Source of the DNA: a virus
DNA length: 64,000 nucleotides
Virus record (IMG/VR): IMGVR_UViG_3300046062_000024
Strand: one strand, 5' to 3'
Below, in pieces: positions 8,843 to 53,923 of the stretch. The position numbers and the translations under genes are program-made. Positions within the stretch are counted from its first letter, which is position 1. Every line of letters starts with the position of its first letter. The notes beneath the pieces are model-generated. The model searched no databases, was not told where the DNA came from, and worked only from the letters and a program-made list of their open reading frames with translations.

Positions 8843-9244
8843 TTATTCCCGGGGCGGCTTCGGGCCGATTTCGTCAATCAGGTCGGGGCGGTACCGCTCG
8901 GTTTTCTCGTACAGTACCCGCCGGAAGTGGACTGGCCCCGCGCCGATGCTCACACCGGCGGCCCACAGGTAGGCCGGACCGAAGGTGTCCAGCAGGAGCC
9001 TGACGTTGTTCCCGTCGGCGTGGAAAAACGCCTCGGCGACGTTGCCGTCCCACAGGTTGCCGGCGAAGTCGCCGCCGCGCTCGCGGACCCGCTCGGGGTC
9101 GTCGTGCTTGCGGACGAGTTCCTTGACGCTGTGGCGGTCCACGTCCGGGTGGTCGGACGGCTCGGCCAGCATGACGGTGGCGAACTCGGGCGATGCGCCG
9201 GCGACGAGTAGCCGTTCGGCGTCCGAATAGGAGTCGGGGTTCAT
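8843..9244 (-). CDS. Cassette gene, hypothetical protein (133 aa)
   Basis: ATG 6 nt after the repeat. Confidence 0.8.
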   Translation of the reverse strand: MNPDSYSDAERLLVAGASPEFATVMLAEPSDHPDVDRHSVKELVRKHDDPERVRERGGDFAGNLWDGNVAEAFFHADGNNVRLLLDTFGPAYLWAAGVSIGAGPVHFRRVLYEKTERYRPDLIDEIGPKPPRE

Positions 9245-9287
9245 CGGTGGTCACGCCCCTCTCGGGGCGACGGTGTGGGGCTGTCGG

Positions 9288-9497
9288 TCAGCCCTGTTGT
9301 TTGTTGAGTTGGGCCTTCAGTTCGGACCACAGGGACACGTCGCCGTCCCCGGTTCCGAACTCGTCGGCCTTGACCTGTTCTTCCAGCAGCCGCCCGACTC
9401 GTTCGGCGTCCATCTCGGTCGGGACGAACAGCATCGCTTCCGGGTCGTCGGGGACTCTCAGTATGTCCGTCGAGGCGTTCGGGTTGTCCGATTCCAT
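9288..9497 (-). CDS. Cassette gene, hypothetical protein (69 aa)
   Basis: ATG 6 nt after the repeat. Confidence 0.75.
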   Translation of the reverse strand: MESDNPNASTDILRVPDDPEAMLFVPTEMDAERVGRLLEEQVKADEFGTGDGDVSLWSELKAQLNKQQG

Positions 9498-9542
9498 CGG
9501 TGGTCACGCCCCTCTCGGGGCCGAACGAGGCGGGCCGGGGCG

Positions 9543-10019
9543 TTAGCCCCACTCCTCGCTGTGTAGTTGTTGCTCGCAGCGGAGGCAGGTGACGCTCTCA
9601 CCGCCCGATATGTAGTGGTGGGCGCGGTACGTGTAGACGCCGCGCTCGCCGCCACACTCGGGACACTCCTCGGGGACGCCCGAGAGGTCGGCCTCGAAAA
9701 GTGGGAACGCCACCGTGTAGCGACCCACGTGGTCGTCGCTCCGTTTCGCGCCGTGCTGTGGGTCGCCGCGGGTGACTGAGAAGTCCCGTACCTCGCGCGT
9801 CTCGACCGTCCACTCGCTGTCGTGGACGTGTTTCAGGACGTGGAGGTCGCCGGTCCCCGGCGTGCCCGGGATGTCGTGGTTTGCGACCGTCTCCAGCGCC
9901 GCCTCGATGCGGCTGGTCGAGGGACCGCGGCGTTGGCGGCCTCGGTCCCGTCGCGCTCGCTGGTGGTCGGTTCGGTCGAGTCGTGCCCGTCGTCGGGCTT
10001 CGGGGTAGGGGTCAGTCAT
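9543..10019 (-). CDS. Cassette gene, Arg-rich N-terminus and C-terminal zinc ribbon (158 aa)
   Basis: ATG 7 nt after a variant repeat; CPECG...CLRCE; the N-terminus may be frameshifted. Confidence 0.7.
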   Translation of the reverse strand: MTDPYPEARRRARLDRTDHQRARRDRGRQRRGPSTSRIEAALETVANHDIPGTPGTGDLHVLKHVHDSEWTVETREVRDFSVTRGDPQHGAKRSDDHVGRYTVAFPLFEADLSGVPEECPECGGERGVYTYRAHHYISGGESVTCLRCEQQLHSEEWG

Positions 10020-10063
10020 ACCGGGGTCTCGCCCCTCTCGGGGCCGAACGCGGGATGGGTGGG

Positions 10064-10300
10064 TTAGTAGTACCAGCCCATCTTGTCGCATATCTCGCGG
10101 GCGAGTTCCACTTCGCTCTCGTTGCGGGCGTCCACGTACTCGGTGCCGGCCAGCGCCACGATGCCCGGTTTGAGTACCTGCCGGAACACCTCGCGCTGGA
10201 GATAGTTGTGTTCGCTGTTGATGCCGGCTTGGAACTCGGCTATCTCGATACCGCTGTTCACGCTGTCGCCGATTGCGTCGGCGAGGTCGGCTGCGTCCAT
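10064..10300 (-). CDS. Cassette gene, hypothetical protein (78 aa)
   Basis: ATG 6 nt after the repeat. Confidence 0.75.
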   Translation of the reverse strand: MDAADLADAIGDSVNSGIEIAEFQAGINSEHNYLQREVFRQVLKPGIVALAGTEYVDARNESEVELAREICDKMGWYY

Positions 10301-10348
10301 CGGTGGTCACGCCCCTCTCGGGGCCGGCGGGGGCAGTCCCCGCGCTGG

Positions 10349-10591
10349 TTACTCGTGGACGACGACCCGGAGGCCGGACTCGACCATCTCGACGGCGGGG
10401 TCGGATGTATCCATCTCGTCCGGTACGTCGTACTCCTGGTCGGTCACGCGGACGGCCTCGACCTCGACGGCGAACGGGTCGCCCGGCCACTCGACTCCAT
10501 TGACGACGGCTTCGGCCGCCGTTTTGTGGTCGTCGGCCTCGGCCGCGCCGAGGACTTCGCCGCTTTCGACGTAGATGATGTACGTATCCAT
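10349..10591 (-). CDS. Cassette gene, hypothetical protein (80 aa)
   Basis: ATG 5 nt after a variant repeat. Confidence 0.75.
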   Translation of the reverse strand: MDTYIIYVESGEVLGAAEADDHKTAAEAVVNGVEWPGDPFAVEVEAVRVTDQEYDVPDEMDTSDPAVEMVESGLRVVVHE

Positions 10592-10636
10592 CGGTGCCAC
10601 GCCCCTCTCGGGGCCAAACCGGCTTGAAGCCGGTGG

Positions 10637-11167
10637 TTAGTCGTCCAGTCCCGCCACTACGTCGTCACGCGGTATCCACGACGTGGCCCCCGCTTCACCG
10701 TAGGGGGCGAAGTCCTCGGCCAGCATGATGCGGACCTCGGTGTCGTCGTCGTCCAACAGGTACGCCGCGGCGTGGCGACCCATATCGTTCGGGTCGCGTA
10801 CCTCCACGACCGGGTGGGGATGGCCGTGGGGGTAGTCATGCACCAGCAGGGTCGTGTTCAGGCGGTCCCCGCAGACATGGCAGGACGCGCCGGGGTAATC
10901 CCACTCGTCGTTCGCGGCGACGACCCCAACACCGAAGCCGTCGGGGTCGTGCCCGCCCGGCGGGAACTCCGTCAATGGGTACATCTCGCCGTCGCCCGCA
11001 GACTCGACGGACACATCCGGCGCGCACGATAGGCAGTACGCCGCGCCGTCGTAGATGTAGCCGGCCGCGCCGCCGGGCCACACGCCGCCAGGGAGTTCCC
11101 GGGCAGTCGGGGCGAGGTCGTCGTCGTCGGTCACGGACTCCGCACTCAGGTTTCCTATGACGCCCAT
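10637..11167 (-). CDS. Cassette gene, Cys-containing hypothetical protein (176 aa)
   Basis: ATG 7 nt after the repeat; CLSC...CHVCG. Confidence 0.8.
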   Translation of the reverse strand: MGVIGNLSAESVTDDDDLAPTARELPGGVWPGGAAGYIYDGAAYCLSCAPDVSVESAGDGEMYPLTEFPPGGHDPDGFGVGVVAANDEWDYPGASCHVCGDRLNTTLLVHDYPHGHPHPVVEVRDPNDMGRHAAAYLLDDDDTEVRIMLAEDFAPYGEAGATSWIPRDDVVAGLDD

Positions 11168-19921: not shown

Positions 19922-20728
19922 CTACTCCCCCTCGGGGATTGGGTTAGCCTCGTTCTTGCACATCGGTTTGTTGAATCCGCGAATACGCCGGCAGAGGTCA
20001 TGCTCGACCCCACAATACCCGTCCCCCCTGTTGTGGGTCGCGCGATGCTCGACAAATTCCATCAGAACATCCGCCTGTTTTCGTTTGAGGGTCAAATACG
20101 GACGCACCCGTTTAAGCACCGCGTGCATCATCGGCATCGAGGTCAAATCCAGACGGTAGAGGTCTCGCTTCCTGTCGGAGTGAGGCTCTTTCGCCCCCTT
20201 CGTCGTCTTTATCCGAGCAGAATCCAGCATTCCACGGACATCTTGCACAAATTCCTCCTCCACGCTGTGCAAAATAATCACGTTTGGTGCATAACGGTAA
20301 TTACCGTCCCCCTGCGACCATCGGCCAATTGTAACCGTCCCCTCCCCGTCGATAAGACCAGCGATATAGCCTGCCTCGGCGTCGGTTAACTCGACCTCCC
20401 ACTCCTCGATTGCATCCTGTAACGGCATCCCCATCGACATCACGGGGAAACATACGTCCATCTTCGCTATCTTATTATGGACGGAACTATATGTCCTCCC
20501 GAGTTCTTCGGCGAGTTCCTCGGTATTCATCCCGCCGATGTTATCGCGTATGAACTGTTCCTCCCCCTCTCCCCACCCGTAGTGCGGTCGGTCCTCCGAC
20601 AACCCCATCGAATCGGCCTTCCCGTAAACGCTTGGTTTCGACCGACCCAACTCGTCCGCTATATCACCCGCCGACTGGTCGTGGTAGTGCTGTTCGAGAT
20701 GCTCCTCCTCCTCTTTGGTCCACTCCAT
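19922..20728 (-). CDS. Free-standing LAGLIDADG homing endonuclease with two N-terminal HTH-like repeats
   Basis: YIAGLIDGEGTV motif; WTKEEEEHL..DIADELGRS and WGEGEEQFI..ELAEELGRT repeats; GTTAAG box at 20753-20758. Confidence 0.8.
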   Translation of the reverse strand: MEWTKEEEEHLEQHYHDQSAGDIADELGRSKPSVYGKADSMGLSEDRPHYGWGEGEEQFIRDNIGGMNTEELAEELGRTYSSVHNKIAKMDVCFPVMSMGMPLQDAIEEWEVELTDAEAGYIAGLIDGEGTVTIGRWSQGDGNYRYAPNVIILHSVEEEFVQDVRGMLDSARIKTTKGAKEPHSDRKRDLYRLDLTSMPMMHAVLKRVRPYLTLKRKQADVLMEFVEHRATHNRGDGYCGVEHDLCRRIRGFNKPMCKNEANPIPEGE

Positions 20729-23327: not shown

Positions 23328-23651
23328 ATGGATAAAATCGACCGGCTGAATGTCGGACAGTGGTACAACGCAAAGCAGATACCCCACGAGCTAACGGGAA
23401 AGCGGGAGGCGACCCACAACGGCGCCGACGGCCGCATCTACACGTTCGAGTTCGAGGACCACCCCGAGTTGTACTCCGGGCCGGGGGAGAGCGGCGAACT
23501 GGCCCGCAACGTCATCACCCGCAACCTGCCAGTCTCGTCTTTCGACACGCTTGTCGTCGGCGTGACGGACATGGGAGAAGTCGAGGCCTTCCCGGAACAC
23601 CACCAGTACGAGGCCGAAATCTTCGTCCACGGGGACGCGCTTCAGAGGTAA
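23328..23651 (+). CDS. Hypothetical protein, paralog 2 (107 aa)
   Basis: Paralog of 22968..23288. Confidence 0.8.
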   Translation: MDKIDRLNVGQWYNAKQIPHELTGKREATHNGADGRIYTFEFEDHPELYSGPGESGELARNVITRNLPVSSFDTLVVGVTDMGEVEAFPEHHQYEAEIFVHGDALQR

Positions 23652-24430
23652 TACGGAACAAGCCACTCGGGGCGCAGCGGCGTCCGGTTCGCCACATCCC
23701 CCAACCGAGTATGGAGGCGTAAGATACGGCGGAGCCGTCGCGTTGCCGGCGACGCGCCCCACAACGCCTCCGCCTCGTCCATCATCTCCTCCCGCCGGAA
23801 CGCGAGGTCCTGGCGGGTGGTGTATCCCTCCGTGAACAGTGTGGAGATGCCGGCGTCCTCGTCGTCCGGCTGGTCGAGATAGTCGTCCAACAGTTGCATC
23901 ACGGCGCCGAACTCCAGCATAAACTCCACCTCGTCGTAGGTCGGTTCCGCTTTGAGCGCGTGGAGGTGTGTCCGCGCCGACCAGCCGCCTTTCATCTCTG
24001 TCACGAGCATCAAGTCGGTCGCGGAGGGGTCCTCGAACTGTGAGAGGCTCTCGTCCTGCCATTGGGCGATTTTCTCCATCCCGTCGTCGAACTCCGGGCT
24101 TCTTGCCACGTCTGAGGCGGTTTCGACGAGTTCGAGTTCGGGGTACTCGGTGCCGCCGTGGAGGGCGCGGCGGGTGACGCCGCCGCCGATGCGTTCGTTC
24201 CGGTAATCGGTCACGCAGTCCATCGCGGCAATGGCGGCGGCGTACAGCGAGCCCTCGAAGTGCCGCGGCTCGCCGACCGCCATCCACGACAGGTACGTCG
24301 TGACGACGTTGACGTGCCGGACCATCTTCAGCGAGCCCTCGCGTTCGGGCTCGGGGATGTGGCGTTCGATGAGTGCCGGGGCGAACCCGAAGTCGTGGCC
24401 GAGTTGGCGGCGTTCGTGCGACAGCATCAC
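23642..24430 (-). CDS. Class I isoprenoid synthase / terpene-cyclase-like protein (262 aa)
   Basis: MDCVTD (degenerate first motif), EMKGG, QLLDDYLDQPDD second Asp-rich motif. Confidence 0.6.
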   Translation of the reverse strand: MMLSHERRQLGHDFGFAPALIERHIPEPEREGSLKMVRHVNVVTTYLSWMAVGEPRHFEGSLYAAAIAAMDCVTDYRNERIGGGVTRRALHGGTEYPELELVETASDVARSPEFDDGMEKIAQWQDESLSQFEDPSATDLMLVTEMKGGWSARTHLHALKAEPTYDEVEFMLEFGAVMQLLDDYLDQPDDEDAGISTLFTEGYTTRQDLAFRREEMMDEAEALWGASPATRRLRRILRLHTRLGDVANRTPLRPEWLVPYYL

Positions 24431-25866
24431 GAATCAAATACGCCGTTCTCGTGCTGTAATTTTGTCGTCTCCGAAAGGGAACGGCGCTCGATGCTGTGCC
24501 TGTCCATCCATCTCAGAATCGTGGAGCCACTAACTTCGCACTCCTCGGCGATTTCGCGCCCTGATTTCTCGTGGTCGTGATACTGCTCGCGGAGCCACTC
24601 CTCGTCCGTGTACGGGCCATCTTTTATGTGGGATTCCCCTCTGGGGCGTCGGGCGATGTCGTACGTATCCATCCAGTTGTGGACTGTGCCTTCACTGACT
24701 CCACACTCCTCGGCGATTTCGCGCGCTGACTTTTCGCACTCCTGATACTGCTCTCGGAGATACTCCTCGTCAGTGTGCGGGCCGTCGCCGCGCTGCGTTT
24801 CTGGCCCGGAGCGCCGGTCGATGTCGTGCTTGTCCGCCCAATGATAAATCGTGGCGGCGCTCACATCGCACTCCTCGGCCATATCGACCGCCGACCTCCC
24901 CCGCTCGTGGTACTGCTCGCGGAGCCACTCCTCGTTCATGTACGGCTCGTCCCCGCGGTTGGCCTCCGAGAGCGAGCGGCGCTCAATGCCATGTTTTTCC
25001 ATCCAGTAGTGGATTGTGTTCCCATCTACATCACACACCTCGGCGATTTCGTCCTTTGTTTTTTCCTGACCGTGGTACTGCTCGCGGAGCCATTCCTCGT
25101 TGCGCCACGGGCTGTGCAAGACCTCAACGTCTCGGTCTTGGATGTCCGAGTTTGCCTTGTTTAGCCCGGTGGTGGGGCCTTCATACCGCCTCCCCCCAAT
25201 CTCTACGGTTTTCCGCTCCGGGATGGACTCAGTTGGCTCGCTTTCCACGTCAGAAACGTACACCACCTTATCGCGGTAGTTTTGGGATGCTTCCGAGCGC
25301 GAGCGGCGTTCGATGTCATGCCGTTCCATCCACTTGCAGATTGTTTTATGACCAACTTCACACTCATCAGCCATTTCGAGAGTTGACTTTTCCTTCTCGT
25401 GGTACTGCTCGCGGAGCCACTCCTCGTCTTTGTGCGGGCCTTCAGCCATTTGCATCTCTGAGTACGACCGACGCTCGATGCCGTGGCGGTCCATCCAACT
25501 GTAAATTGTGCTTGTAACCACCTCACACTCGTCAGCGATTTCGAGAGCCGACTTTTTTTGCTCGTGGTACTGCTCGCGGAGCCACTCCTTGTTCGCAAAC
25601 GGACCGTCGCCAGTTTGCGATTCTGCCCCCGAACGGCGGTCGATGTCGTACTCGTCCATCCACCGGAGGATTGTTGTTTCACCAACTCCACACTTCTCGC
25701 CCATCTCAGACATGGTCATTTCCAGCCCGTGGTACCGGTTGTAGAGCCACTCGGGGTCCTGATACTTCTCGTCGTACTCCTCGCCGGCCTCGGCCTGCTC
25801 GTCGGCGCGGTCGTCGATGACCTCGACCGTTTCGCCCTCGCTCTTGTACGGTGTCTCCTCGCTCAT
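24427..25866 (-). CDS. Protein of seven tandem ~55-aa HTH-like repeats (479 aa)
   Basis: Repeat EEWLREQYHE..KS..EIA.EC.V...TI..WM..H.IERRS in a 3+4 arrangement. Confidence 0.85.
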   Translation of the reverse strand: MSEETPYKSEGETVEVIDDRADEQAEAGEEYDEKYQDPEWLYNRYHGLEMTMSEMGEKCGVGETTILRWMDEYDIDRRSGAESQTGDGPFANKEWLREQYHEQKKSALEIADECEVVTSTIYSWMDRHGIERRSYSEMQMAEGPHKDEEWLREQYHEKEKSTLEMADECEVGHKTICKWMERHDIERRSRSEASQNYRDKVVYVSDVESEPTESIPERKTVEIGGRRYEGPTTGLNKANSDIQDRDVEVLHSPWRNEEWLREQYHGQEKTKDEIAEVCDVDGNTIHYWMEKHGIERRSLSEANRGDEPYMNEEWLREQYHERGRSAVDMAEECDVSAATIYHWADKHDIDRRSGPETQRGDGPHTDEEYLREQYQECEKSAREIAEECGVSEGTVHNWMDTYDIARRPRGESHIKDGPYTDEEWLREQYHDHEKSGREIAEECEVSGSTILRWMDRHSIERRSLSETTKLQHENGVFDS

Positions 25867-28085
25867 GCTATCGCCTCGTCCGGGATGAAGGATACGTCTA
25901 CCTCGTCCAGTACGGAATCCTGGGACGCCATCTTATAAACCATCCATGCAGGGACCGTCTCCATCATCGAGGTCTTCTCGTGGTCCGGCATGTCCTGAAC
26001 CCACGCCGTGGCGTTGTCGTACCACTTCTCTAACTCCTCGTTCTCGTCCTTGATGAACGACGGGATGTCGTCGTCGGCGATGTCGTCCGCGACTTGATAC
26101 AGAATACCCGTCTCCTCGCCGTACTTGCGGGCGGCGTCCTCCTGTTCCGGTGGGACGCTCACGTAGGTCGCGGGCATCCAGGCGGCCATCCCGAACAGCC
26201 CCCCGGTTTTCATCCGGTTAATCTCGATGTATTTGTCGTACCCGCCGCCGAGCATGCCCCAGGTGAAGTTCTGCCCTTCGGCGAAAAACCCGTCCACGAG
26301 ATGTCGGGTGCCGTGGCCCATCGCTTGCACTACGTCGGGGTCGTCGGCGAGTTCGAGCGCGAGCGCCATCAACCCGTTCTCCGCCATGACGGTGAGGCCG
26401 GTCGTGACCTTGTGGCCCTTCCGGCCGAACGGGAGTTTCTCCAGGATTTTCCACAACGCCGGCGCCCCACGACGGGTCGCGTCGCCGTCGTACACGTCGT
26501 CGGCGACCAACGAGTTGTGCGTGACCACGCCGTCTGCGATGTAGTTGTGGTCTCCCTCGACACAAAGGTCGTAAGTGGGTTGCGGCTCGTCAACTGGCTC
26601 CACCGACTTCACCCTGGTAAATCCGACCGCATCGTAGTCGGGACCGCCGTCGGGGAACAGCACCGTCCGCTCCAACCGCATCGAGCGTGTCCTGTCGAAG
26701 CCCGACAGCCGTTCGCGGTACTCGGGAGATAGCGGGACCATCCCATCCATGACCTTGTGCGGTCCAATACTGAAGTGGTACAGCCGCGTCTCTGTGGTCG
26801 GGGCGCCGTCGATGTGGCCCGTATCGACCGTCCGGGACCAGATGTTCGTCGTTGTGAACCCGAGTTGGTCCAGCAGTTCCTTCAGGTCGCGCACAAGCGG
26901 GCCGTTTGCCATCCCGAGTTCTATCATCCCGTCTTTCTTCGCGGTCCCGTCCGCGTCAATGACGCCCGCGACGAACTGCCGTTGCGTCTCGGGGTCAGCT
27001 CCCCACACCCACTCGGGAACACGAATTTCTGTATGGTTCTCCGCCAATCCCAGGTCGCGGTACTTTCGCGCCAGCGACACGTCCGGCACCTGGAGCCTGT
27101 CGGGACGAACGTCGATGCTATTGTCCGTCTGCTCGGCCAACGCATCGTGGACCCACTCGCGGATGGGGTCAGTAGATGGAACGTGGACATCCACTCTATA
27201 GTCAGTGACGGACCCGTCGCCAACGATAATGCCCGCGAGGCGGGCGAAGGTACTGTCGTGGCTCTCTCCCGACACCGATGTCTGCTTGGCCGCAACAACC
27301 ACGTCGCCATCCGACAGGTCAGACGCCTCGACGTACTCGTACCCCACATCGGGCGTCTCGTACTTCATCTGCTTACTCCGGCAGAGGTCGGCGGGTGCGA
27401 CATCGACATCTGCCGCATCGAACACGGCTTCCACGTCCGATTCGGTGAGGTAGTTGGTCGATTCCCACTCTTTGTCGGCTTGGTAGAGCCAGTTTTGAAC
27501 GGTTCCGTCAGCGGCGTCTGTGTCTGCTCTTGCCGCGATGTCTGTGACCGTGGACGACAACATACGCATCACCTCCTCGGTCGGCGCGTACCTGACCTGC
27601 TGGTCCTTCCGGTAGACCAAGAACTCGTGGTCCGGGGTGCAGGTCACAGTACGGTTGCCCATCTCGACGCACACGACGTTCTGGACGCCGTTCTCGTGGA
27701 AGTGAGTAACCTTTCGGGGAGTGTAGGTGTGCTGGCCCTCGTCGTAGGCCAACACCTCGTCGCCCTCCTCGATTTCTACGATAGGGACACTCTCCCCGCT
27801 CGATTTACGAACGCGGGTGTCTCCGGTCACGCAGGCGTTGTGGATGAGTTCAACGATGGCTGCGTGGTCGAGGGCTCGGTCGTAGGGCACGTCGTACACG
27901 TCCGCAACCAGCATCGTCAGCACGGGGCGAACGCGCTTCCCGCCCTGTGTGGCGTGCGCGAGGATTTTCCGCTTCCCGGCGAAGCCCTCCTCGGTCTCGA
28001 TGATTTCGTCGAGCCGGTCGTCTATCCGCTGTTTGGCCTCCACGTAGTATTCCTCGAACGCATCGAACTCTGCTTGGGTGGGCAT
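25863..28085 (-). CDS. Trans-polyprenyl diphosphate synthase (GGPP synthase family) interrupted by an intein
   Basis: GGKRVRP, IHNA|SLVADDVYDGDATRRG, KTGGLF, YQVADDIAD; the spliced product would be 300 aa. Confidence 0.9.
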   Translation of the reverse strand: MPTQAEFDAFEEYYVEAKQRIDDRLDEIIETEEGFAGKRKILAHATQGGKRVRPVLTMLVADVYDVPYDRALDHAAIVELIHNACVTGDTRVRKSSGESVPIVEIEEGDEVLAYDEGQHTYTPRKVTHFHENGVQNVVCVEMGNRTVTCTPDHEFLVYRKDQQVRYAPTEEVMRMLSSTVTDIAARADTDAADGTVQNWLYQADKEWESTNYLTESDVEAVFDAADVDVAPADLCRSKQMKYETPDVGYEYVEASDLSDGDVVVAAKQTSVSGESHDSTFARLAGIIVGDGSVTDYRVDVHVPSTDPIREWVHDALAEQTDNSIDVRPDRLQVPDVSLARKYRDLGLAENHTEIRVPEWVWGADPETQRQFVAGVIDADGTAKKDGMIELGMANGPLVRDLKELLDQLGFTTTNIWSRTVDTGHIDGAPTTETRLYHFSIGPHKVMDGMVPLSPEYRERLSGFDRTRSMRLERTVLFPDGGPDYDAVGFTRVKSVEPVDEPQPTYDLCVEGDHNYIADGVVTHNSLVADDVYDGDATRRGAPALWKILEKLPFGRKGHKVTTGLTVMAENGLMALALELADDPDVVQAMGHGTRHLVDGFFAEGQNFTWGMLGGGYDKYIEINRMKTGGLFGMAAWMPATYVSVPPEQEDAARKYGEETGILYQVADDIADDDIPSFIKDENEELEKWYDNATAWVQDMPDHEKTSMMETVPAWMVYKMASQDSVLDEVDVSFIPDEAIA
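26514..27833 (-). mobile_element. Intein (440 aa) with LAGLIDADG endonuclease
   Basis: N-terminal CVTGDT, block B TPDHEF, LAGIIVGDG and VAGVIDADG, C-terminal HN followed by extein Ser. Confidence 0.92.
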
Positions 28086-28094
28086 GAGGCCGCC

Positions 28095-28274
28095 TTAGTC
28101 GTGGATTTCGTTGTTCGTCGGCTCGACGTACTCGTCACAGTGCTGGCACCGGACGCCGTTTCCGTCCTTGTCCATGTGCTTTCGGATGACGTTGCCGAAT
28201 ATCTCTGCCTGCCGCCCCCGAATCTTCACCCCGAGCCGGCTCTCGCACTCGGGGCAGTCACCCTCGATTCGCAT
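28095..28274 (-). CDS. Small zinc-ribbon protein (59 aa)
   Basis: CPECE...CQHCD. Confidence 0.7.
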   Translation of the reverse strand: MRIEGDCPECESRLGVKIRGRQAEIFGNVIRKHMDKDGNGVRCQHCDEYVEPTNNEIHD

Positions 28275-28278
28275 GTGG

Positions 28279-28755
28279 CTATGACTCAGCCTCCACACCG
28301 TCGGCCGCCTGCTGTTGTTGCCACACGAGCGTCTCCAGCATGATGTCCAGTACGTTACTGGTGACGAGCCACACGCGCTCTCGGGACTCGCCGTCCGCCG
28401 GGTGGATGCTCACACCCCCGTGCTGGTAGCGTGCTTTGTCCGGCGTCATCGGGTCGTCCACGTCGAGGATGCGGAGCCCGTAGTCCTGGTAGGTGACGAT
28501 GGCGCCGATGTACTCCCACTCCGGCGTGAGTTCGTCGAGGATGACGATGCGCGGTCCTTCGACGATGCCGAGCATCACCTGCTCGATGGACTCCTCCCCG
28601 CTCTCGTCCGTCAAGTGAACGGACATCGCCGTTCCGACTGGGGATTCGTCGTACCGCTCCCTGATGATACTCCAGTTAAACCCGGCGTTCACCCGAGGGA
28701 GCAGGTCTTTCATGGTCTGTCCAACGATACCGAGGGTGGTTGTGTTCTCCGTCAT
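28279..28755 (-). CDS. Hypothetical protein (158 aa)
   Basis: Start at MTENTTTLG within the track ORF. Confidence 0.7.
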   Translation of the reverse strand: MTENTTTLGIVGQTMKDLLPRVNAGFNWSIIRERYDESPVGTAMSVHLTDESGEESIEQVMLGIVEGPRIVILDELTPEWEYIGAIVTYQDYGLRILDVDDPMTPDKARYQHGGVSIHPADGESRERVWLVTSNVLDIMLETLVWQQQQAADGVEAES

Positions 28756-28865
28756 CAGTGGCCTCCAGTGTTCGGCATGGTCTTGCGCTTCCGCTTCCGG
28801 TAGGCGAGCAGGGCGACGACGACAGCCAGCACGACGACGCCCAGCACCGCGAGGGCTCGTTTCAC
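28755..28865 (-). CDS. Small single-pass membrane peptide (36 aa)
   Basis: MKRALAVLGVVVLAVVVALLAYRKRKRK; overlaps both neighbours. Confidence 0.55.
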   Translation of the reverse strand: MKRALAVLGVVVLAVVVALLAYRKRKRKTMPNTGGH

Positions 28866-29683
28866 GCCGCCACCTCCTCGCGCTGGAGGAACTCGCGGAC
28901 TGTTGTGCCCCACGCATCCCGCCGCGCCTCGAAGTCCGCCGTGTACGGAAGGACGGCCTCGATGTCCGTGCCGAAGTCCGGGGGGCCGTCGCTGTCGTAG
29001 CCGAACAGCGGGTAGTCATCGGCGGTCTCCCGTAGGACTTCGTGGATGCGTTCGGCTGTCGCGTCGCCGACGCCGTCGATGTCCGTGAAGTCGACGCCCG
29101 CGGTTGCGTGGTCGACGATGGCGTCGGCGTTGATTTCGGACATGTTCAGGACGCCGGAGTGCGGGACGTTAGCTTGCTTGAAGAACTCGTGGGTCTTGGT
29201 GGCGTCGCGGACGGCGCTCGGGTGTGGCGTCGAGACGACGTAGGCGTAGTCCAGCGGGACCTCGCTGGCGACGGTCTGGAGTTCCTCGCCAGAGCCCGGT
29301 GGGGAGTCGATGACGATGACCTCCGTGTCGTCGCTCCACTCGACGTTCTGGATGTAGTCAAGGACTGCCTCCGCGCGCCACTTCGCGCCGCGGAGGACTG
29401 GTACGTCGTCCGGCAGGACGAGTCCTTGTGAGACGAGTTGGACGCCCTCGACCTCCGGTGGGACGAGCGAGTCGCTGGATGCGAGTCGCTCGTCGGAGAT
29501 GTCGACCTCCTCGCCGCCGATGACCTGGAGGCTGTTCGGCGTCGAGATGTCGGCGTCGATGAAACCGACGCTGTCGACGTGTTCGGTTGCTTGCCGGGCG
29601 ATGTCGGACGCGACCGTCGTCTTGCCGACGCCGCCCTTTCCCGAGGCGACGGCGACGAGTTGTGGTACGTTTTCGAGTTTCAT
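28862..29683 (-). CDS. Mrp/NBP35-MinD/ParA-family P-loop ATPase lacking the Fe-S CxxC motif
   Basis: ASGKGGVGKTT, DADISTPN, IDSPPGSG, LNMS not followed by CPxC. Confidence 0.85.
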   Translation of the reverse strand: MKLENVPQLVAVASGKGGVGKTTVASDIARQATEHVDSVGFIDADISTPNSLQVIGGEEVDISDERLASSDSLVPPEVEGVQLVSQGLVLPDDVPVLRGAKWRAEAVLDYIQNVEWSDDTEVIVIDSPPGSGEELQTVASEVPLDYAYVVSTPHPSAVRDATKTHEFFKQANVPHSGVLNMSEINADAIVDHATAGVDFTDIDGVGDATAERIHEVLRETADDYPLFGYDSDGPPDFGTDIEAVLPYTADFEARRDAWGTTVREFLQREEVAA

Positions 29684-31485
29684 GCTTCAGCCTGCTGGTC
29701 GTCGTTGGTGTCTTCGAGACCGAGTTTCTCGCGGACCCGTCGGCCTTTCTCCTCGGCGGCGGGGTCCGGTTCCTGTTGGCCCATGCCCTGTGGCTCCGGT
29801 TCCGGTTGCGGCTCGGGCTCGGGCTCCGTGTCGGGTTCGGGGTAGCCGCGGTCCCGGTCAGGGTCCGGCGCCGGCCGCTGCGGCTGGCGTTCCTGCTGGG
29901 TGGACTCCGTGACGGTCGGCGGAACGTATCCGGGCTGGCCTTGCACGCCCTGTTGGGGTGGGTCCCAGAGTGCGTGGCCCTCGCCGGGCGTGGAGTGCTG
30001 GAGTTCCTTGAACGCGGGTACGAGGGCCTCCCGGACGGTCACGCCGACTTCTTTCGGTATCTTGCGGAGGTTGTCGTTGAGCATCTCCAGGTGTTTCTCC
30101 TGGGACTCCATCTTGCGGTCGGTTTTGAGGTACTCCGGGTCGTCGATGCCGTCGGCGCCGAGCCGTTTCGCGTCGCGGAGTTCCTCCGTGAACGACGACC
30201 GCATGTTCTCCAGTTGGCGTTCGAGGCGGTCGACTTCGTCCTCTTTGAGTTCCTCGTTGATGATGGCCTGTACGTCCTCGGCGGTGAGGTCCTCGTCGTC
30301 CTCGGCCTGCATCTCCCGCATCTGGTCGAGCGTCTGCGTGAAGTTCTGGGACATCTGCTGTTGGGCCTGCGCCTGTTTCTCGCCGAGGTGTTGGATGGCG
30401 TCGCCGATGGCGTCGGCCATGTCCTTTCCGCTGTCGTCGTTGATGACGCCCATGTTGTCCAGGAGTTGGACGGTATCTTCCAACGACCGCGAGTCGTCCT
30501 GTTGATAGTCGGACTCGTCCGGGATGAGGCCCGCGTTCTTGGCTTTCGCCAGTTTCTCGATGAAGTCCTCGTCGCCGCCGTCGTCACCGATGAGCCCTAG
30601 CTGGACGGCCTGCTCGAACGGCATCGTGACCGACGAGCCGTCCTCCCGTTCGACCGTCACCATCTGGCCGTCCGGTTCGTCGTCCACGGCGTCCTGGACG
30701 GCATCGGTCAGTTGCTCGACCTGTCTCTGAAGCGCGTCCACCCGCGGGTCGGTTCCCTGCCGGCCGCCCTGCTGGGGCGGCGGCCCCTGCTGTCCCCGGC
30801 GCTGGTGTTGTGGCGGGTTCGGTTGGCCGCCGTGTGCTGGCGGGAAGTCGCCGGGCTGTCCTTGGACGGGGACGCCGCCGCTCATGGATTCCGGCGCCGT
30901 CGGGTCCTGCTCGACGCTGGCGCCTTGTATCGCGCCCATGCCGCTCGGTGCGCCGCCGGCGGCCTGCTGCTGGGTCTGGTAGTTATCAATCCACGTCTCG
31001 TAGCGGCGTTGGATGTAGTCCACGTCCGTGCCGGTGACGCCGCTCTTGGTCCCGCGGAGGAACTGGTCGACGTACATGGGCGCGGGGAGTTGTTGTGCGT
31101 CCCGGATTTCGTCCACCATCATCTGGATGGCGCGGCTACGGATGCCCATTTCGTATTTCTCGTCCATCTCCTCGAAGAACGTCTCGAACTCGCTGATGGC
31201 TTCTTCGAGCGGGTCACGGAACAGCCCGGAACCTTCGACGAGGTTGGCTTCTATCTCCTCGGCGGCCTCCTCTACGTCCGCCCACCGCTCGGACAGCAGT
31301 GGTTGTGAGAAGTCGCGGCCCTCCGCCGCCCCGCTTTGCGATTCGCCTTGTGCTATCTCCATCAGCGCACTACGCATTTCATCTTTGTCCCACTCGGCTT
31401 TCTCACTCCGGTGGGTGATTACACGGTCTATCGCGTCGTAGTACGCCGGGTCTACCTCCGGCATGACCGGGCTTTTCAAGGCCAT
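29680..31485 (-). CDS. Large acidic protein with Gln/Pro/Gly low-complexity tracts and coiled-coil-like segments (601 aa)
   Basis: ORF track; ATGA coupling to the ATPase gene. Confidence 0.8.
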   Translation of the reverse strand: MALKSPVMPEVDPAYYDAIDRVITHRSEKAEWDKDEMRSALMEIAQGESQSGAAEGRDFSQPLLSERWADVEEAAEEIEANLVEGSGLFRDPLEEAISEFETFFEEMDEKYEMGIRSRAIQMMVDEIRDAQQLPAPMYVDQFLRGTKSGVTGTDVDYIQRRYETWIDNYQTQQQAAGGAPSGMGAIQGASVEQDPTAPESMSGGVPVQGQPGDFPPAHGGQPNPPQHQRRGQQGPPPQQGGRQGTDPRVDALQRQVEQLTDAVQDAVDDEPDGQMVTVEREDGSSVTMPFEQAVQLGLIGDDGGDEDFIEKLAKAKNAGLIPDESDYQQDDSRSLEDTVQLLDNMGVINDDSGKDMADAIGDAIQHLGEKQAQAQQQMSQNFTQTLDQMREMQAEDDEDLTAEDVQAIINEELKEDEVDRLERQLENMRSSFTEELRDAKRLGADGIDDPEYLKTDRKMESQEKHLEMLNDNLRKIPKEVGVTVREALVPAFKELQHSTPGEGHALWDPPQQGVQGQPGYVPPTVTESTQQERQPQRPAPDPDRDRGYPEPDTEPEPEPQPEPEPQGMGQQEPDPAAEEKGRRVREKLGLEDTNDDQQAEA

Positions 31486-32418: not shown

Positions 32419-32667
32419 ATGTATTTTCCACGGCCTATCGGGATGGTACTCGGCCGCGTGGAATCAAGCTACCGCCCCACGGGGCGGTTTCGGCCGGGGA
32501 TTGATTGGGACAGTGACAGGCACCCGTATACTTAAGTCCCCAGGGGCAGATGGGTCTGGCTGTTCACAGCCGTCCCGCGGAAAAGGCTATCCCTCGCCTG
32601 TTCTGTGGGGCTGCTACCACATAAAGGTAGTGCCAACTATGCACGGCAGCCCACCCACGAAAATAAC

Positions 32668-35600
32668 ATGACGACGCAAGACCCGATTCAGAGCGACGCT
32701 ACCGTAGTATCGAACACGACCCATTTTCCCGCGCGCCTGACATCGAGCGACCGATGGATGGTCTGGAAAGCCACGGAGAATCAACGAAAGGTACCGCGCG
32801 CGCCCTGGGACGGAAGCGTGGACGCCTTCGCCTCCGCGATGGACCCCGACAACTGGCAGGACTACGAGACCGCGTGTGAGTACGTGGAGATGCTCGACGG
32901 GTTCGACGGCCTTACGTTCTCGCTACAGGACGGCGACGGGTTGACCCTGATGGACTACGACGACGTGCGTAACCCCGACACCGGCGAGGTGCTGCCGGAG
33001 GTCTCGAACCACATCGAGCGCGTCGGCGGGTTCGCGCAGGTCTCGACGAGCGGCACCGGCATCCACCTCATCGTCGAAGGCGACCTCCCCGAGAACGCCC
33101 GCTCGCTCGTCATCGACCTCGACGGGCACCCCGACGCGGAACTGGAGATATACGACGGCGACCGCTTCATCGCCATGACCGGGGACAAGGTCGAGCGGTC
33201 ACGGCCGAACGTCCGCGGCGGCCAAGCCCTGCTTGACGACATCGTGGCGGAGTACGGCGAGGACGCCACCGCCGTCGAGCCCGGCGAGCGCGCCGAAGAA
33301 TGGGACGCGAGCAAGAGCCGTGCCGAAATCGAGGACACCGAGACCACGTCGAACATCGAGGACATATTCGACGCCATCAAACACACCGACTACTCCGACA
33401 TCCGGCTCCGCTCGACACTCACCGAAGGCGAGAACGCCTCACGGAAATCGTTCGACCCCTCCTGGGAGACATCCGAATCCGGGACGCGGCTCGGATACGA
33501 GGACGGCGGCTGGATTTACCGGCAGGGCAACGTCGGCCTCGACGCCCTCCAGTTAGTGGCGCTCGAAGAACGCATCATCCACGACCCACGCGACTACCCC
33601 GACGGCCAGGAGTTCTGGGACGCCGTCGAGGAGCTACGAGCCCGCGGCGCACCCATCCCCGAGTACGACGACACCGCAGCCGGGAGCGACATGGTCGCGG
33701 TCCTTCCGCACACCCCGAATGGTGGCGAGTGGAACTGGAAATCCGCGACGCGGGCGATTTCGGCCGACGACATGCCCGGGATGGAGGAGGCGCGCGAGCG
33801 ACTCGACGAGATGCTGGAGGACGTGTGGACGGGGAGTGACGACGTGTTGATTGACGCCTTGCCGAGCCTCGGGAAATCCTCCGGCGCGATACGCGCAACC
33901 GCCCGGACCGGACAGCCGGTCACGGTCTACTGCGCGCGCCACGAGCTATACGGCCAGAACCAGGAGTGGTGCGACGATTACGGCCTCACGTACTACACGC
34001 TCCCGTCGATGCCCCGGGACTGCCCGACCGCCAGCGGCGAGTACGGCGACGACTGGCAGGACAGAGCGATGGATTGGTACGGGCGCGGCGCCACCCCGAA
34101 AGCGATACACGCCCACGCGGAGAACGCGCTCGGGCGACCCCTCCCGTGCCAGGAGGACGGCCGCTGTCCGTACTCCGCGAAATGGGATTTCGAGCCCGAC
34201 GACTACGATGTCCTCATCGGCCACTACAAGCACGCCTACAAGACGGCCACTCACTCCGGCCGCGTTGCCGTGTTCGACGAGTTCCCCGAGGACACCTACA
34301 CCACGCCGCTCGCCGGCCCCGCGTTCAAGGGCGCGGTGACGCGGTACCTCCAGGATGCCGACGACATACCCGCCGACGACTACGCCGGCCTCGTGGCGAA
34401 ACGTACCGACGACGAGATGCGGGGCGCGATAGCGGACCACTTCGACGGCGAAGTCGAAACGGACCCCGAGAGCGTTATCTACAACGATGACGCCCACGCG
34501 AACGCGCCCCTCGCAGTGTACGCGCTCGTCCACGCGAAAGACCTCGGGAACGGTTACGAACACGCCCGCCTCCCCGACGGCGACCGCGCCGTCGTGGCGA
34601 AAGAAGACCTGACCATCAGCCTGATGCACACCCCCGACCTCACCTACACGTCCACGACGGTCGCACTCGACGGCACCCCGACCAAACGGATGTGGGACAC
34701 GATTCTCGGCACCTACCTGGAGCGCCGCAGCCCACTCGACACCGCCGAGCGCCGACACTACCTCGTCAACGTCCTCGGCGTCAACGTCGTCCAGACGACC
34801 GACTACATCAAACCATACTCCAGTGGGACATACGTGACGGCGGGCGGGATGCAGCGCGACGAGGCAATCCTGGAAGGGATACGCGGTGTCTACGACGAGA
34901 AACCCGCCCTCATCACCACCCAGAACGCGGAGGAAAAGTACGAGCGCGCCGGCCTCTTAGAACACACGTCAGACACCGAACACTACGGGAACCTCAAGGG
35001 AACGAACCGCTTCTCCTCCACCCGGCTCGGCACCGTCATCGGGTCACGCCACTACGGCGACCGCTACATCAAGCGGTGGGGCGCCTTCGAGAACAAAGCC
35101 ATCGAGGCCAACGACGAACACGGCGTCGAGCGCAGCTACGGCGAGTTCGGAGACAAGATACTCCGACACATGCGCGAACACGAGACGCTCCAGGCGGTCC
35201 TCCGGTTCGGACGCGACGGCGGCGGCGGGACCGTGTTCGTCCACACCAACACCCTCCCGGAGTGGGTCCCATTGGCGGGACGTGGAACGACCATCAAGGT
35301 CTGGAGCGACGGGATGAAAGAAGTGATGGATGCCGTCAAGCGCGCATCGAAGTGGACGACGACCGAGGTCGCCGAGCGGTGCAGCATCACGCGCAGACAG
35401 GTCCTTAACAACCTCAACACGTTGGCGGAGATGGGATACGTGTCCGTGAAAAAGGACGATAGCGAATACGTCTGGGGGGATGGCGGGCTGGTGGAGGCGC
35501 CCGACGCGGGGCACGTCGAGTTCGAGGACATCGAGGTGGATGCGTTGTCTGTCGAGGAGGAGCGCGAAATCTCGCGTAGCGTTATCCTTACGTGGGACTT

Positions 35601-35715
35601 CGCGCCAGTGGGCTTGGAAACCTTCGCTACAGGAGGAGCCCCCGAGTACGGGCGGGCCACCGATGGGGGGACGGGGGCGGATGGGTCGTCGGGAGTGGGG
35701 GAGCCGCCGCCGTAG
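32668..35715 (+). CDS. Replication protein: N-terminal primase-polymerase (NrS-1/AEP-like), central helicase-like NTPase, C-terminal wHTH
   Basis: WMVWK..RKVP, MDYDD, QVSTSGTGIH, ELEIYDGDRFIAMTG; ALPSLGKS and VFDE; ETLQAVLRFGR; TTTEVAERCSITRRQVLNNLNTL. Confidence 0.8.
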   Translation: MTTQDPIQSDATVVSNTTHFPARLTSSDRWMVWKATENQRKVPRAPWDGSVDAFASAMDPDNWQDYETACEYVEMLDGFDGLTFSLQDGDGLTLMDYDDVRNPDTGEVLPEVSNHIERVGGFAQVSTSGTGIHLIVEGDLPENARSLVIDLDGHPDAELEIYDGDRFIAMTGDKVERSRPNVRGGQALLDDIVAEYGEDATAVEPGERAEEWDASKSRAEIEDTETTSNIEDIFDAIKHTDYSDIRLRSTLTEGENASRKSFDPSWETSESGTRLGYEDGGWIYRQGNVGLDALQLVALEERIIHDPRDYPDGQEFWDAVEELRARGAPIPEYDDTAAGSDMVAVLPHTPNGGEWNWKSATRAISADDMPGMEEARERLDEMLEDVWTGSDDVLIDALPSLGKSSGAIRATARTGQPVTVYCARHELYGQNQEWCDDYGLTYYTLPSMPRDCPTASGEYGDDWQDRAMDWYGRGATPKAIHAHAENALGRPLPCQEDGRCPYSAKWDFEPDDYDVLIGHYKHAYKTATHSGRVAVFDEFPEDTYTTPLAGPAFKGAVTRYLQDADDIPADDYAGLVAKRTDDEMRGAIADHFDGEVETDPESVIYNDDAHANAPLAVYALVHAKDLGNGYEHARLPDGDRAVVAKEDLTISLMHTPDLTYTSTTVALDGTPTKRMWDTILGTYLERRSPLDTAERRHYLVNVLGVNVVQTTDYIKPYSSGTYVTAGGMQRDEAILEGIRGVYDEKPALITTQNAEEKYERAGLLEHTSDTEHYGNLKGTNRFSSTRLGTVIGSRHYGDRYIKRWGAFENKAIEANDEHGVERSYGEFGDKILRHMREHETLQAVLRFGRDGGGGTVFVHTNTLPEWVPLAGRGTTIKVWSDGMKEVMDAVKRASKWTTTEVAERCSITRRQVLNNLNTLAEMGYVSVKKDDSEYVWGDGGLVEAPDAGHVEFEDIEVDALSVEEEREISRSVILTWDFAPVGLETFATGGAPEYGRATDGGTGADGSSGVGEPPP

Positions 35716-36305: not shown

Positions 36306-36547
36306 CTGATGAAATAGAGGTCGTGGAGTCTCTACCCGACCGACCGTTAACACATGCAGAGATAGCCGCCTTGGCCGGCGCTGACAGTATCAAGGGCGTC
36401 GAGCCGACCGGTTATCACCCCGAGACGTTAGAAATAATGGGTGTCGCACTCGGTACCGGGTCGGACGAGGTGCTTGTGGCGTATCACCCCGAACGGTGCC
36501 AGTGGGAGGTGGTCGAGCGTTGGGGCCGAAGTAAACCACAACCATGA
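36302..36547 (+). CDS. Hypothetical protein (81 aa)
   Basis: ATGA overlaps at both ends. Confidence 0.65.
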   Translation: MTDEIEVVESLPDRPLTHAEIAALAGADSIKGVEPTGYHPETLEIMGVALGTGSDEVLVAYHPERCQWEVVERWGRSKPQP

Positions 36548-36888
36548 CACCGACCGACGAGGAGTACGACGAGCCGTACTACGACCCCGAGTGGCTCCGC
36601 CACCAGTACCACGAGTTGGGCAAGTCCACGGTCGAAATCGCCCAGGAGCGCGACGTGGACCCGACCACGATTGGGAACTGGATGAAACGCCACAACATCG
36701 ACAGGCGCTCGCTCTCGGAAGCCCACATGACCCGCGGGATACACCAGGACGAGGAGTGGCTCCGCGAACAGTACCACGAGCAGGAGAAATCGCTGTACGA
36801 CATCGCCGACGAGTGCGGCGTTAGCGCCCCGACGGTGTTCCGCTGGATGACGCGGCACGACATCGACCGCCGCTCGCGCGGCCGATAA
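36544..36888 (+). CDS. Two-repeat HTH protein, same repeat as 24427..25866
   Basis: PEWLRHQYHE..KSTVEIA and EEWLREQYHEQEKSLYDIA. Confidence 0.85.
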   Translation: MTPTDEEYDEPYYDPEWLRHQYHELGKSTVEIAQERDVDPTTIGNWMKRHNIDRRSLSEAHMTRGIHQDEEWLREQYHEQEKSLYDIADECGVSAPTVFRWMTRHDIDRRSRGR

Positions 36889-42573: not shown

Positions 42574-42798
42574 ATGACTGGCGAGCGGACGCATAAAGGG
42601 ATGTCTAAACCCCCCGAGGGGGTGGTGGCGGGCGAGACCGTGCCCGTCGAGTCCGAGCCCGACGAGGCGGCGCGACAGGCGATAGAACACGTGATGAATC
42701 ACATCAAGGCACGGCATCCGAGTGGGGCGGAGATGAGTGAGAGCGAGCGGCGGGAGAAGGCAAAGGCGTGGCTCCGCGACATGGGGGTGGAGGTGTGA
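42574..42798 (+). CDS. Small hypothetical protein (74 aa)
   Basis: GTGA overlap with 42795. Confidence 0.55.
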   Translation: MTGERTHKGMSKPPEGVVAGETVPVESEPDEAARQAIEHVMNHIKARHPSGAEMSESERREKAKAWLRDMGVEV

Positions 42799-43679
42799 GC
42801 GACCTTCCCGACATCGAGACCGGCCAAGTATCCTTCATCGCGTACTTCAACGCCATCGACCAGGGCGGCGTCCAATCCATCGACCCCGAGGAGGTCACGA
42901 GCGACGCCGGCATCGAATCCGCGACGCTGTACGACAACGGCGTGGACGGCACCTATGACCTGACGCACGTTTCCAGCGGCTTCACGAACGACAACGGCCC
43001 GGTTGAGTGCCAGTTCCGGGTCAAGAGCGACGGGTGGATGGTCGCGTACCTCGACCAATCGGAGGAGTTTAACCAGAATGTTCTCGGGAACGCAGGCGAA
43101 TCAGGCACTTATCCTCCTTATCCGGTCGATTCGGGTGTGACTGGCTGGTGGCGGTTGGACCCCCAATGGGCGGGAGTCGGGGAAAACTACCAGGGTGGAA
43201 CTCCGCCTGATGGGGTGAATCATGGTCTCGCCCGTACCATCAATTCTCTCCGGGGGGAGTTCTCGAACTCCGGGTCAATCTCGTACTCCGCGAGCGACGT
43301 GGGCCTGTATAACTTCCAGTATTCCGACGCGACGGCCCACACGCTACTGACCTCGATAGTCGAGAATTACCAGGGTGGAGCGGGCGGCCCGTGGGGGTTC
43401 TCGTACACGGGCTCGACGACCATTGAGGCCGCCGCGATGGCAGGCGGCATCATCGCTGACTTGTACGACGGCGACCTGGAGATGTCGTTTGAAAACACGA
43501 AACTCGTCAAAGCAAGCGACATCACAAATGACCATCCCACGAAAGGCTTCGGTGTCATCAACCCGGTATCTCGCGGCCTCATCCCGAACGCCGACACGAC
43601 ATACGAACACCACATGACGATAAAAGACGGGGGCGATTACCGGACGGAGATACCGACGGCGTACCTCCTCTGGAGCTAA
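42795..43679 (+). CDS. Putative spike/receptor-binding protein A1 (294 aa)
   Basis: GTG start; N-terminus MSDLPDIETGQVSFIAYFNAIDQGGV shared with 45019..45846; divergent C-half. Confidence 0.6.
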   Translation: MSDLPDIETGQVSFIAYFNAIDQGGVQSIDPEEVTSDAGIESATLYDNGVDGTYDLTHVSSGFTNDNGPVECQFRVKSDGWMVAYLDQSEEFNQNVLGNAGESGTYPPYPVDSGVTGWWRLDPQWAGVGENYQGGTPPDGVNHGLARTINSLRGEFSNSGSISYSASDVGLYNFQYSDATAHTLLTSIVENYQGGAGGPWGFSYTGSTTIEAAAMAGGIIADLYDGDLEMSFENTKLVKASDITNDHPTKGFGVINPVSRGLIPNADTTYEHHMTIKDGGDYRTEIPTAYLLWS

Positions 43680-43682
43680 CCC

Positions 43683-46820: not shown

Positions 46821-47076
46821 CATCGTCTCCGAACGCGGCGTGAAAGTCGAGAACGTGGACGTGTATATGGACGTTGAAGGCGTCCCGATTGCGTACAGCC
46901 GCGACACGGGGCGGTTCGCCATCGGCGTCGCTGACCCGGGCAACCTGTACGTCGTGTGCAGCGACGAGGACCGCCGGTACGAGCGCGCCGACAAGGAGTT
47001 GGACTTATCCCAGGACGATGTCGTCGAGGTCAACTTCCGGCTCGTGGACTCGACGGCCGTCGGCAACGTCGCATAG
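45853..47076 (+). CDS. Putative structural protein B2 (407 aa)
   Basis: Paralog of 43683..44909. Confidence 0.7.
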   Translation: MGVNATQDVDVETDITPESPGGASDGPGGGVMSVWQQDRVTKLNQLATSSFTNNSSYDIPNGVVDTQQFDTAFENNEKRLGVFATGLVLTADGAPMPGAARIEKDGKAVESVDTSGQFTATTTPQQGVVNGENAGSEEYDFRFDIDLEGIDLFKTGIYSGRDIGTIQYGDMEGKITDYNGDPIPNESVTGKGGGGASTDDEGFYTFRAPGGTDVTVSSLSGEVDKTRTVPGASALTVDWQFAGVTAKASLPDGTTVPNAPVEISSREGNARTDEGGENQYVAVPPETEVTVTYLDTYEETVTTADEGQNVVAPMELGAGCKGTIVSERGVKVENVDVYMDVEGVPIAYSRDTGRFAIGVADPGNLYVVCSDEDRRYERADKELDLSQDDVVEVNFRLVDSTAVGNVA

Positions 47077-53749: not shown

Positions 53750-53923
53750 CGAACCTCAGCGTCGGCGCTGTCCTCGTCCGCGCGGCGTGGTTTGCCGTAC
53801 TCGTGTTTACCGCGTACTGGGTCTTTATCCTGTGGCGGCTCTATCGCGGACGTGAGCGGCTGTAGCCCGCGTCCGGTCGGCGACCCCTCGGGTTGAAGTT
53901 CGTGGGGCGGTAACGTGGCCGCT

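Follow-up and report, generated by a model that had tools for sequence, protein, structure and literature searches.

The membrane lipids, quinones and carotenoids of archaea are isoprenoid-based, and in trans-isoprenyl diphosphate synthases (IPPSs) a small residue five positions before the first DDxxD motif (position -5) allows longer chains, a bulky Phe or Tyr being found there in the archaeal geranylgeranyl diphosphate (GGPP) synthases that are limited to C20. The same fold is used by MoeN5, the head-to-middle prenyltransferase of moenomycin synthesis, which is ~260 residues long, has DDxxD/DxxxD motifs and acts on an acceptor other than isopentenyl diphosphate (IPP) (PMC7839719). The literature searched contained no account of prenyl-chain synthesis encoded by an archaeal virus or plasmid itself. 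The locus described here is from a halite metagenome (IMG/VR record IMGVR_UViG_3300046062_000024), of which 64,000 nt of one strand, referred to as the window, were analysed. An earlier note made from these letters alone had proposed a virus-encoded isoprenoid pathway, not known as a standard auxiliary function of haloviruses; literature searches on prenyl synthases in haloviruses and archaeal viruses returned nothing relevant, in keeping with that view. The locus encodes an intein-containing prenyl diphosphate synthase and a second protein, the partner, and the two probably constitute a conserved two-enzyme isoprenoid module on ~80-kb extrachromosomal elements, probably viruses, of halite-dwelling Halobacteria.

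Three end-overlapping open reading frames (ORFs) on the minus strand make up the locus (Table 1). The synthase precursor gene and the middle ORF overlap by ATGA, and the end of the middle ORF overlaps the partner start codon at 24427 within the sequence TGATG. The GC content at third codon positions of all three is 0.73-0.86, high as in real genes of the window, which has an overall GC content of 58-72% in 2-kb windows. The block had been read as an overlapping isoprenoid operon, and this stands for the synthase and the partner, which do lie in one overlapping minus-strand block, but not for the middle ORF, which is ruled out as a pathway gene and codes for a protein of helix-turn-helix (HTH) repeats.

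The synthase precursor matches PF00348 (polyprenyl_synt) at 90.3 bits (cut-off 27) in two stretches flanking the intein, and also matches Intein_splicing (64.1 bits) and LAGLIDADG_3 (35.2 bits). Once residues 85-524 are removed, its alignment with intein-free homologues of 300-301 residues from related contigs (57-71% identity) covers the full length. The spliced product has 300 residues and retains GGKRVRP, His82, DDVYD followed by RRG, KTGG, and DDIAD; the catalytic motif positions are invariant across 46 homologues, and G49, K50, R51, R53, H82, K186 and T187 are invariant in the numbering of an intein-free homologue. By its sequence the spliced enzyme is thus a trans-prenyl diphosphate synthase of the long-chain type with complete catalytic motifs, as the earlier note had concluded from the two DDxxD motifs, GGKRxRP and KT.

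The Ala that had been placed at -5 is likewise borne out: at the extein junction (..IHNA/SLVADD..) Ala84, the last N-extein residue, lies at -5 and Ser525 at -4 of the first Asp-rich motif. HMMER alignments place Phe at -5 in the Geoglobus GGPP synthase and Ala-Ser in a long-chain-type enzyme of Bacteroides (3rmg), and the same Ala-Ser pair is named in the mutant entry titles of the Thermotoga maritima octaprenyl synthase (A76Y/S77F). From this pair and the established chain-length rule a product longer than C20 is therefore predicted, and we infer one of C25 or longer. The synthase belongs to a clade of ~70 members at ≥40% identity, followed by a gap to ~33% for ordinary synthases. Residues are inserted after RRG, the C-terminus (LPSFI..ELEKWY) is peculiar to the clade where others have a GK..K region, and the alignments of the synthase to solved structures end at the second Asp-rich motif.

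The intein splits the synthase four residues ahead of the first Asp-rich motif. It starts with Cys1 (CVTGDT..), contains a TPDH block B and the motifs LAGIIVGDG and VAGVIDADG, and ends in His-Asn (..VVTHN) with Ser at +1, the full set of features of a LAGLIDADG homing-endonuclease intein. A halite contig from the metagenomes of the same study is joined across 26490-27835 with 24 replacement letters and a net loss of 1320 nt, and is an intein-free allele. Homologues in Halobacteriales metagenome-assembled genomes (MAGs) carry a mini-intein without endonuclease at the identical site, and comparison of these alleles indicates transfer of the intein between the synthase genes of cells and those of the elements. 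In one relative (L004:2060-4957) a LAGLIDADG intein sits in the conserved subtilase and not in the synthase.

The partner has no Pfam match at E≤0.1 and no NCBIfam match at E≤1, and hence no match to a terpene-synthase family. Its own family is metagenome-only; the 24 clusters that make it up are 41-78% identical, and 34 positions are invariant among them. The AlphaFold model made from the family alignment is all-helical (pLDDT 94.3, pTM 0.91), and a Foldseek-independent fold search of 48,161 chains gave, among the 50 matches listed, only class I isoprenoid-fold enzymes. These include a pimarane diterpene synthase (7e4o; Z 16.1, 237 residues aligned, root-mean-square deviation 3.6), a farnesyl diphosphate (FPP) synthase (Z 15.9), a C45 synthase (Z 15.0), MoeN5 (Z 14.8, 227 residues aligned, root-mean-square deviation 3.8), 3sae (Z 14.4), 6oh6 (Z 13.4), CrtM (Z 13.1) and the Orpheovirus terpene synthase 8jw3 (Z 12.5). 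Helical proteins reach a Z of ~14 through arrangement alone, and the argument for the fold therefore rests on the uniformity of these hits together with sequence evidence.

The partner profile aligns KGG and DDYLD with the KT and second Asp-rich motif of trans-IPPSs (6kd7, E 0.03; FPP synthases). When 1.84 billion representatives were searched exhaustively with this profile, 1173 proteins matched at E≤1e-3; those beyond the core family are unnamed proteins of 240-290 residues and many of 300-350 residues, the usual IPPS length, and three of ten smaller relatives scanned have sub-threshold similarity to polyprenyl_synt or DUF5685. Residues D70, D74, Q124, K146, G147, Q178, D182, D185, D189, G193 and T196 are invariant between the partner and relatives at 20-27% identity, and the family alignments contain no conserved equivalent of the IPP-binding GKRxR or RRG. 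The first motif is DxxTD, and DDYLDQPDD fits a D-x3-D-x3-D spacing and the second IPPS motif equally. D70xxxD74 and D181xxxD185 also fit the squalene/phytoene synthase pattern; there is no PF00494 match, and the profile points to head-to-tail IPPSs.

The model and the profile alignments identify the partner as a diverged trans-IPPS relative, a new family with the class I isoprenoid-synthase fold, and its invariant residues indicate that the allylic-diphosphate and metal site of IPPSs is retained. The second class I protein that the earlier note had seen in the operon is thus upheld, a terpene synthase being one possible identity of such a relative. With the diphosphate and metal site kept and the IPP motifs missing, a terpene synthase or a non-IPP prenyltransferase is therefore likelier than a second chain-elongating enzyme, and we infer from motifs and model that the partner would ionise a prenyl diphosphate without adding IPP.

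Genomic context was obtained for eight lineages, the window and seven relatives (L001, L004, L006, L008, L010, L015 and L016). In all eight independent lineages the synthase is followed by the partner, at partner identities down to ~40%, and in three (L001, L006 and L008) the partner ATG comes directly after the synthase stop codon. The L001 pair, with an intein-free synthase, is located at 9098-10786. The pair is part of a block with the conserved order Prim-Pol, ~556-residue protein, ParA/Mrp-like ATPase, 159-residue protein, 59-residue protein, synthase, partner and subtilase. Searches of 50,697 phage records, 72,556 plasmids and 185,579 species genomes revealed no close relatives of either enzyme, except for members of the synthase clade in two uncultured Halobacteriales MAGs, the only cellular members of that clade. 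No relatives of the partner were found in those phage, plasmid and species-genome collections or in a viral-contig collection. No relatives of the protein at the right end of the window were found in metagenome contigs, and an exact 39-mer, used to look for the contig past the window ends, had no counterpart in the viral and metagenome collections.

One of the two MAGs (QS_1_68_20; L014, contig PXRE01000018.1) has its synthase-clade gene on a contig with nuo genes, in a cluster of six P450 ORFs, four CMAS-type methyltransferases, a squalene-hopene-cyclase-like gene and the synthase with its mini-intein; no partner homologue was found in the cluster. This setting ties the clade to specialised terpenoid metabolism and not to core lipid synthesis. 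An 80.8-kb relative (L019:3267-4720) encodes a UbiA-family prenyltransferase (PF01040, E 2.6e-21; the nearest NCBIfam models are MenA-type and far below cut-offs) beside a chorismate lyase-like gene (PF01947, E 5e-11), past a long array of small genes. The window is without this insert, and the homologues of its flanking genes adjoin at 62578-63509. With UbiA and chorismate lyase, at least one member of the family would thus seem able to attach a prenyl chain to an aromatic acid, a reaction that needs a prenyl diphosphate donor.

The product of the middle ORF consists of seven tandem HTH repeats that match many HTH families. The array is missing from all seven other lineages, and a related halite contig joins 24431 straight to 25866 without it. 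The synthase/partner junction is an insertion hot spot: four lineages have no insert, two have two-transmembrane proteins of 76-77 residues, one has a 126-residue zinc-ribbon protein and the window lineage has the HTH array. The intein and the HTH-repeat gene are probably both selfish insertions, carried by some members of the population and missing in others. The middle ORF contains seven copies of the repeat unit (..EWLREQYHE..S..EIAEEC.V...TI..WM..H.I.RRS) and a 114-residue ORF (36544-36888) contains two, and a related unit precedes a free-standing LAGLIDADG endonuclease (19922-20728).

The synthase-partner module is probably active. Once the intein has spliced out, the 300-residue synthase would condense IPP onto an allylic diphosphate, and Ala-Ser at -5 and -4 would let the chain pass C20. 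The partner, translationally coupled to the synthase in most relatives, would then ionise the resulting prenyl diphosphate, as its fold and motif pattern imply, and either release a terpene by terpene-synthase chemistry or move the chain to a non-IPP acceptor by MoeN5-like chemistry. The adjacency and translational coupling of the two genes, and the IPPS fold of the partner, would also suit a second subunit of a heteromeric prenyl diphosphate synthase (hexaprenyl, heptaprenyl or geranyl) that tunes chain length without a reaction of its own, and small subunits of such enzymes do match the partner model (9kp1_A, Z 12.0; 5xn6_C, Z 13.0). To our knowledge the known small subunits are without Asp-rich motifs, whereas DxxxD and DDxxDxxxD of the partner are invariant even at 20% identity and point to a catalytic metal site; a subunit role is unlikely. 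A complex prediction for the natural pair of one relative, with an alignment for each protein, scored 0.00 and speaks neither for nor against binding. It is less probable still that the synthase only boosts the C20 (GGPP) supply of the host for lipids or bacterioruberin during infection, with the partner unrelated to it. Source annotations call the synthase homologues GGPP synthase, and among solved structures an archaeal GGPP synthase matches best, but the residue at -5 is Ala and not Phe or Tyr, identity to the nearest ordinary synthases is only ~33% with a big gap from the clade itself, and the invariable pairing of synthase and partner, seen in 8 of 8 lineages, speaks for a shared function.

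The window derives from a contig of ~81.8 kb, and the contigs of relatives measure 80.8, 82.0 and 90.3 kb. The earlier note had named host-chromosome context as one finding that would undo its proposal; with no close match in phages, plasmids or species genomes the element is therefore not host chromosome, the partner in particular having no relative in the species genomes. The most conserved protein seen in the element family (48833-50152; 69-93% identity) has a match to phrog_1645 (E 7.8e-14); its homologues include HGTV-1 gp10, which carries the annotation 'virion structural protein', and phiGT1 gp4. The model of this protein (pLDDT 64, pTM 0.70) shows an N-terminal domain folded as a concanavalin-like lectin/GH16 sandwich (Z 14.2), which fits a putative glycan-binding surface or spike protein. 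The product of 52405-52941 has 46% identity with a DnaJ-like protein found in haloviruses HCTV-2 and BJ1, and a RusA-like resolvase is also encoded in the window. As leads only, the product of 50177-51604 resembles beta-helix tailspikes (TM-score 0.53-0.57), and a fibre-like protein is also present. The third-position GC content of 50177-51604 is 0.58, compared with ~0.8-0.9 in its neighbours, which suggests recent acquisition.

Several observations weigh against a long-chain module on a virus. The last 70 residues of the synthase are unalignable with canonical synthases, the Lys-rich stretch that normally follows the second Asp-rich motif is absent and none of the NCBIfam equivalog models scores anywhere near its cut-off, so that the chain-length rule may not transfer to this enzyme. 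The motifs of the partner fit a cyclase, a prenyltransferase or a head-to-head synthase alike, and its Z scores to terpene synthases, IPPSs, MoeN5 and CrtM are all within 3 units. As to the element, the lectin/GH16-like fold of its N-terminal domain speaks against the product of 48833-50152 as a capsid protein; no terminase, portal or capsid was found among 30 ORFs searched against PHROGs (20 also against Pfam) in the 64 kb scanned of ~81.8 kb, and PDB sequence searches and Atlas look-ups gave no capsid or packaging hallmark gene. A Walker-A scan of the window returned only the primase-helicase (32605-35715) and the ParA/Mrp-like ATPase, and no packaging ATPase.

These negatives, with the ParA/Mrp-like ATPase, the Prim-Pol replicase and tyrosine recombinases, favour a plasmid or other non-viral mobile element on which the module would be a secondary-metabolite cassette, as do the failure to find the partner in the viral-contig collection and the P450/methyltransferase/cyclase cluster around the nearest cellular synthases. 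Against such an element stand the homology of the 48833-50152 product to a phage structural family that includes HGTV-1 gp10, the DnaJ-like gene in common with HCTV-2 and BJ1, the RusA-like resolvase, the tailspike-like and fibre-like leads, and the lack of any relative among the plasmids searched. A plasmid-like element is accordingly a substantial possibility that falls a little short of even, and a virus is modestly favoured. In support of the proposal that the pathway is virus-encoded, the element has genes in common with haloviruses, but no capsid, portal or terminase is recognised in the window. A bolder interpretation takes the elements as a new lineage of tailless, lipid-containing haloarchaeal viruses that make their own long-chain isoprenoid or terpenoid to build or remodel the virion or host membrane, using a synthase of their own and an IPPS-derived terpene synthase or prenyltransferase of a class not recognised before, and in some members a prenylated aromatic made with UbiA and chorismate lyase. 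This is unlikely as a whole, and its role in a virion membrane is conjectural.

Other features of the window include a tandem duplicated two-gene module at 42768-47076 (303 and 408 residues, then 275 and 407 residues), the larger proteins of which have a CarboxypepD_reg-like domain and look like alternative spike or receptor-binding sets. A 909-residue low-complexity protein exceptionally rich in Gly and Asp (55053-57782) lies directly after a second subtilase gene (53915-55003). The window contains no tRNA genes.

Table 1. Features of the synthase-partner locus and its upstream genes.
Feature	Coordinates	Strand	Evidence or remarks
Synthase precursor gene (trans-isoprenyl diphosphate synthase with intein), 740 residues	25863-28085	minus	PF00348, Intein_splicing, LAGLIDADG_3
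N-extein, residues 1-84	27834-28085	minus	GGKRVRP (27924-27944, IPP-binding), His82, Ala84 at -5
LAGLIDADG intein, 440 residues (85-524)	26514-27833	minus	Alignment with intein-free homologues
C-extein, residues 525-740	25863-26513	minus	DDVYD (26487-26501), RRG, KTGG, DDIAD (26073-26087), clade-specific C-terminus
Inserted protein, 479 residues, seven tandem HTH repeats	24427-25866	minus	Many HTH family matches
Partner gene, 261 residues from ATG 24427 (alternative start GTG 24430, 262 residues)	23642-24430	minus	Class I isoprenoid-synthase fold (predicted)
Partner motifs	DxxTD 24206-24220; DDYLDQPDD 23861-23887	minus	
Upstream genes of conserved block	28095-31485	minus	Same order in relatives
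601-residue protein	29680-31485	minus	
ParA/Mrp-like ATPase	28862-29683	minus	Pfam PF10609, E 1.5e-36
ORF of ~158 residues	within 28095-31485	minus	
CxxC zinc-ribbon protein, 67 residues	28095-28298	minus	

The occurrence of the strict pair on the whole halite element family suggests that these elements alter isoprenoid chemistry, either in the host or in the particle. One member of the pair is a divergent synthase, the other belongs to an unnamed enzyme family of the same fold. The partner also points to small IPPS-like proteins that are widespread and uncharacterised, have a fixed set of motifs and could offer new terpene or prenyl-transfer chemistry.

The synthase most resembles the long-chain trans-IPPSs of PF00348 such as the T. 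maritima octaprenyl synthase, with which it has in common the fold family, both Asp-rich motifs, GGKRxRP, RRG, KT and Ala-Ser at -5 and -4. It differs in its length of 300 residues with the insertion after RRG and the divergent last 70 residues, in being at most ~33% identical to ordinary cellular enzymes, and in its intein and its location on a mobile element. Closer relatives are the synthases of MAGs QS_1_68_20 and SRP195330_co1_97 (42-47% identity), which have the C-terminus of the clade and an intein at the same site; these, however, are chromosomal (nuo), lie in a P450/methyltransferase/squalene-hopene-cyclase-like cluster, carry a mini-intein without endonuclease and have no partner homologue nearby.

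The partner has its best structural match in bacterial class I terpene synthases (pimarane-type 7e4o/7e4m, Z 16.1), and the 'large' beta-prene synthases (5yo8), which act on long prenyl diphosphates, illustrate the same scheme, in which the product of a prenyl diphosphate synthase goes on to a class I enzyme; the class I terpene synthases, however, have DDxxD where the partner has DxxTD, and NSE/DTE where it has an IPPS-type DDYLD. MoeN5 is similar to the partner in size, fold (Z 14.8) and IPPS-like motifs, but there is no detectable sequence similarity and its setting is an actinomycete antibiotic cluster instead of an archaeal mobile element. Virus-encoded proteins of the class I fold are found in Orpheovirus (8jw3, Z 12.5), Pithovirus and Cedratvirus, and as trans-prenyltransferases in Indivirus, Marseillevirus and an uncultured bacteriophage (BFVD matches, TM-score 0.5-0.63). 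None of these is archaeal, paired with a second enzyme or of a sequence family in common with the partner, whereas in the halite elements synthase and partner occur side by side in every lineage for which context was obtained.

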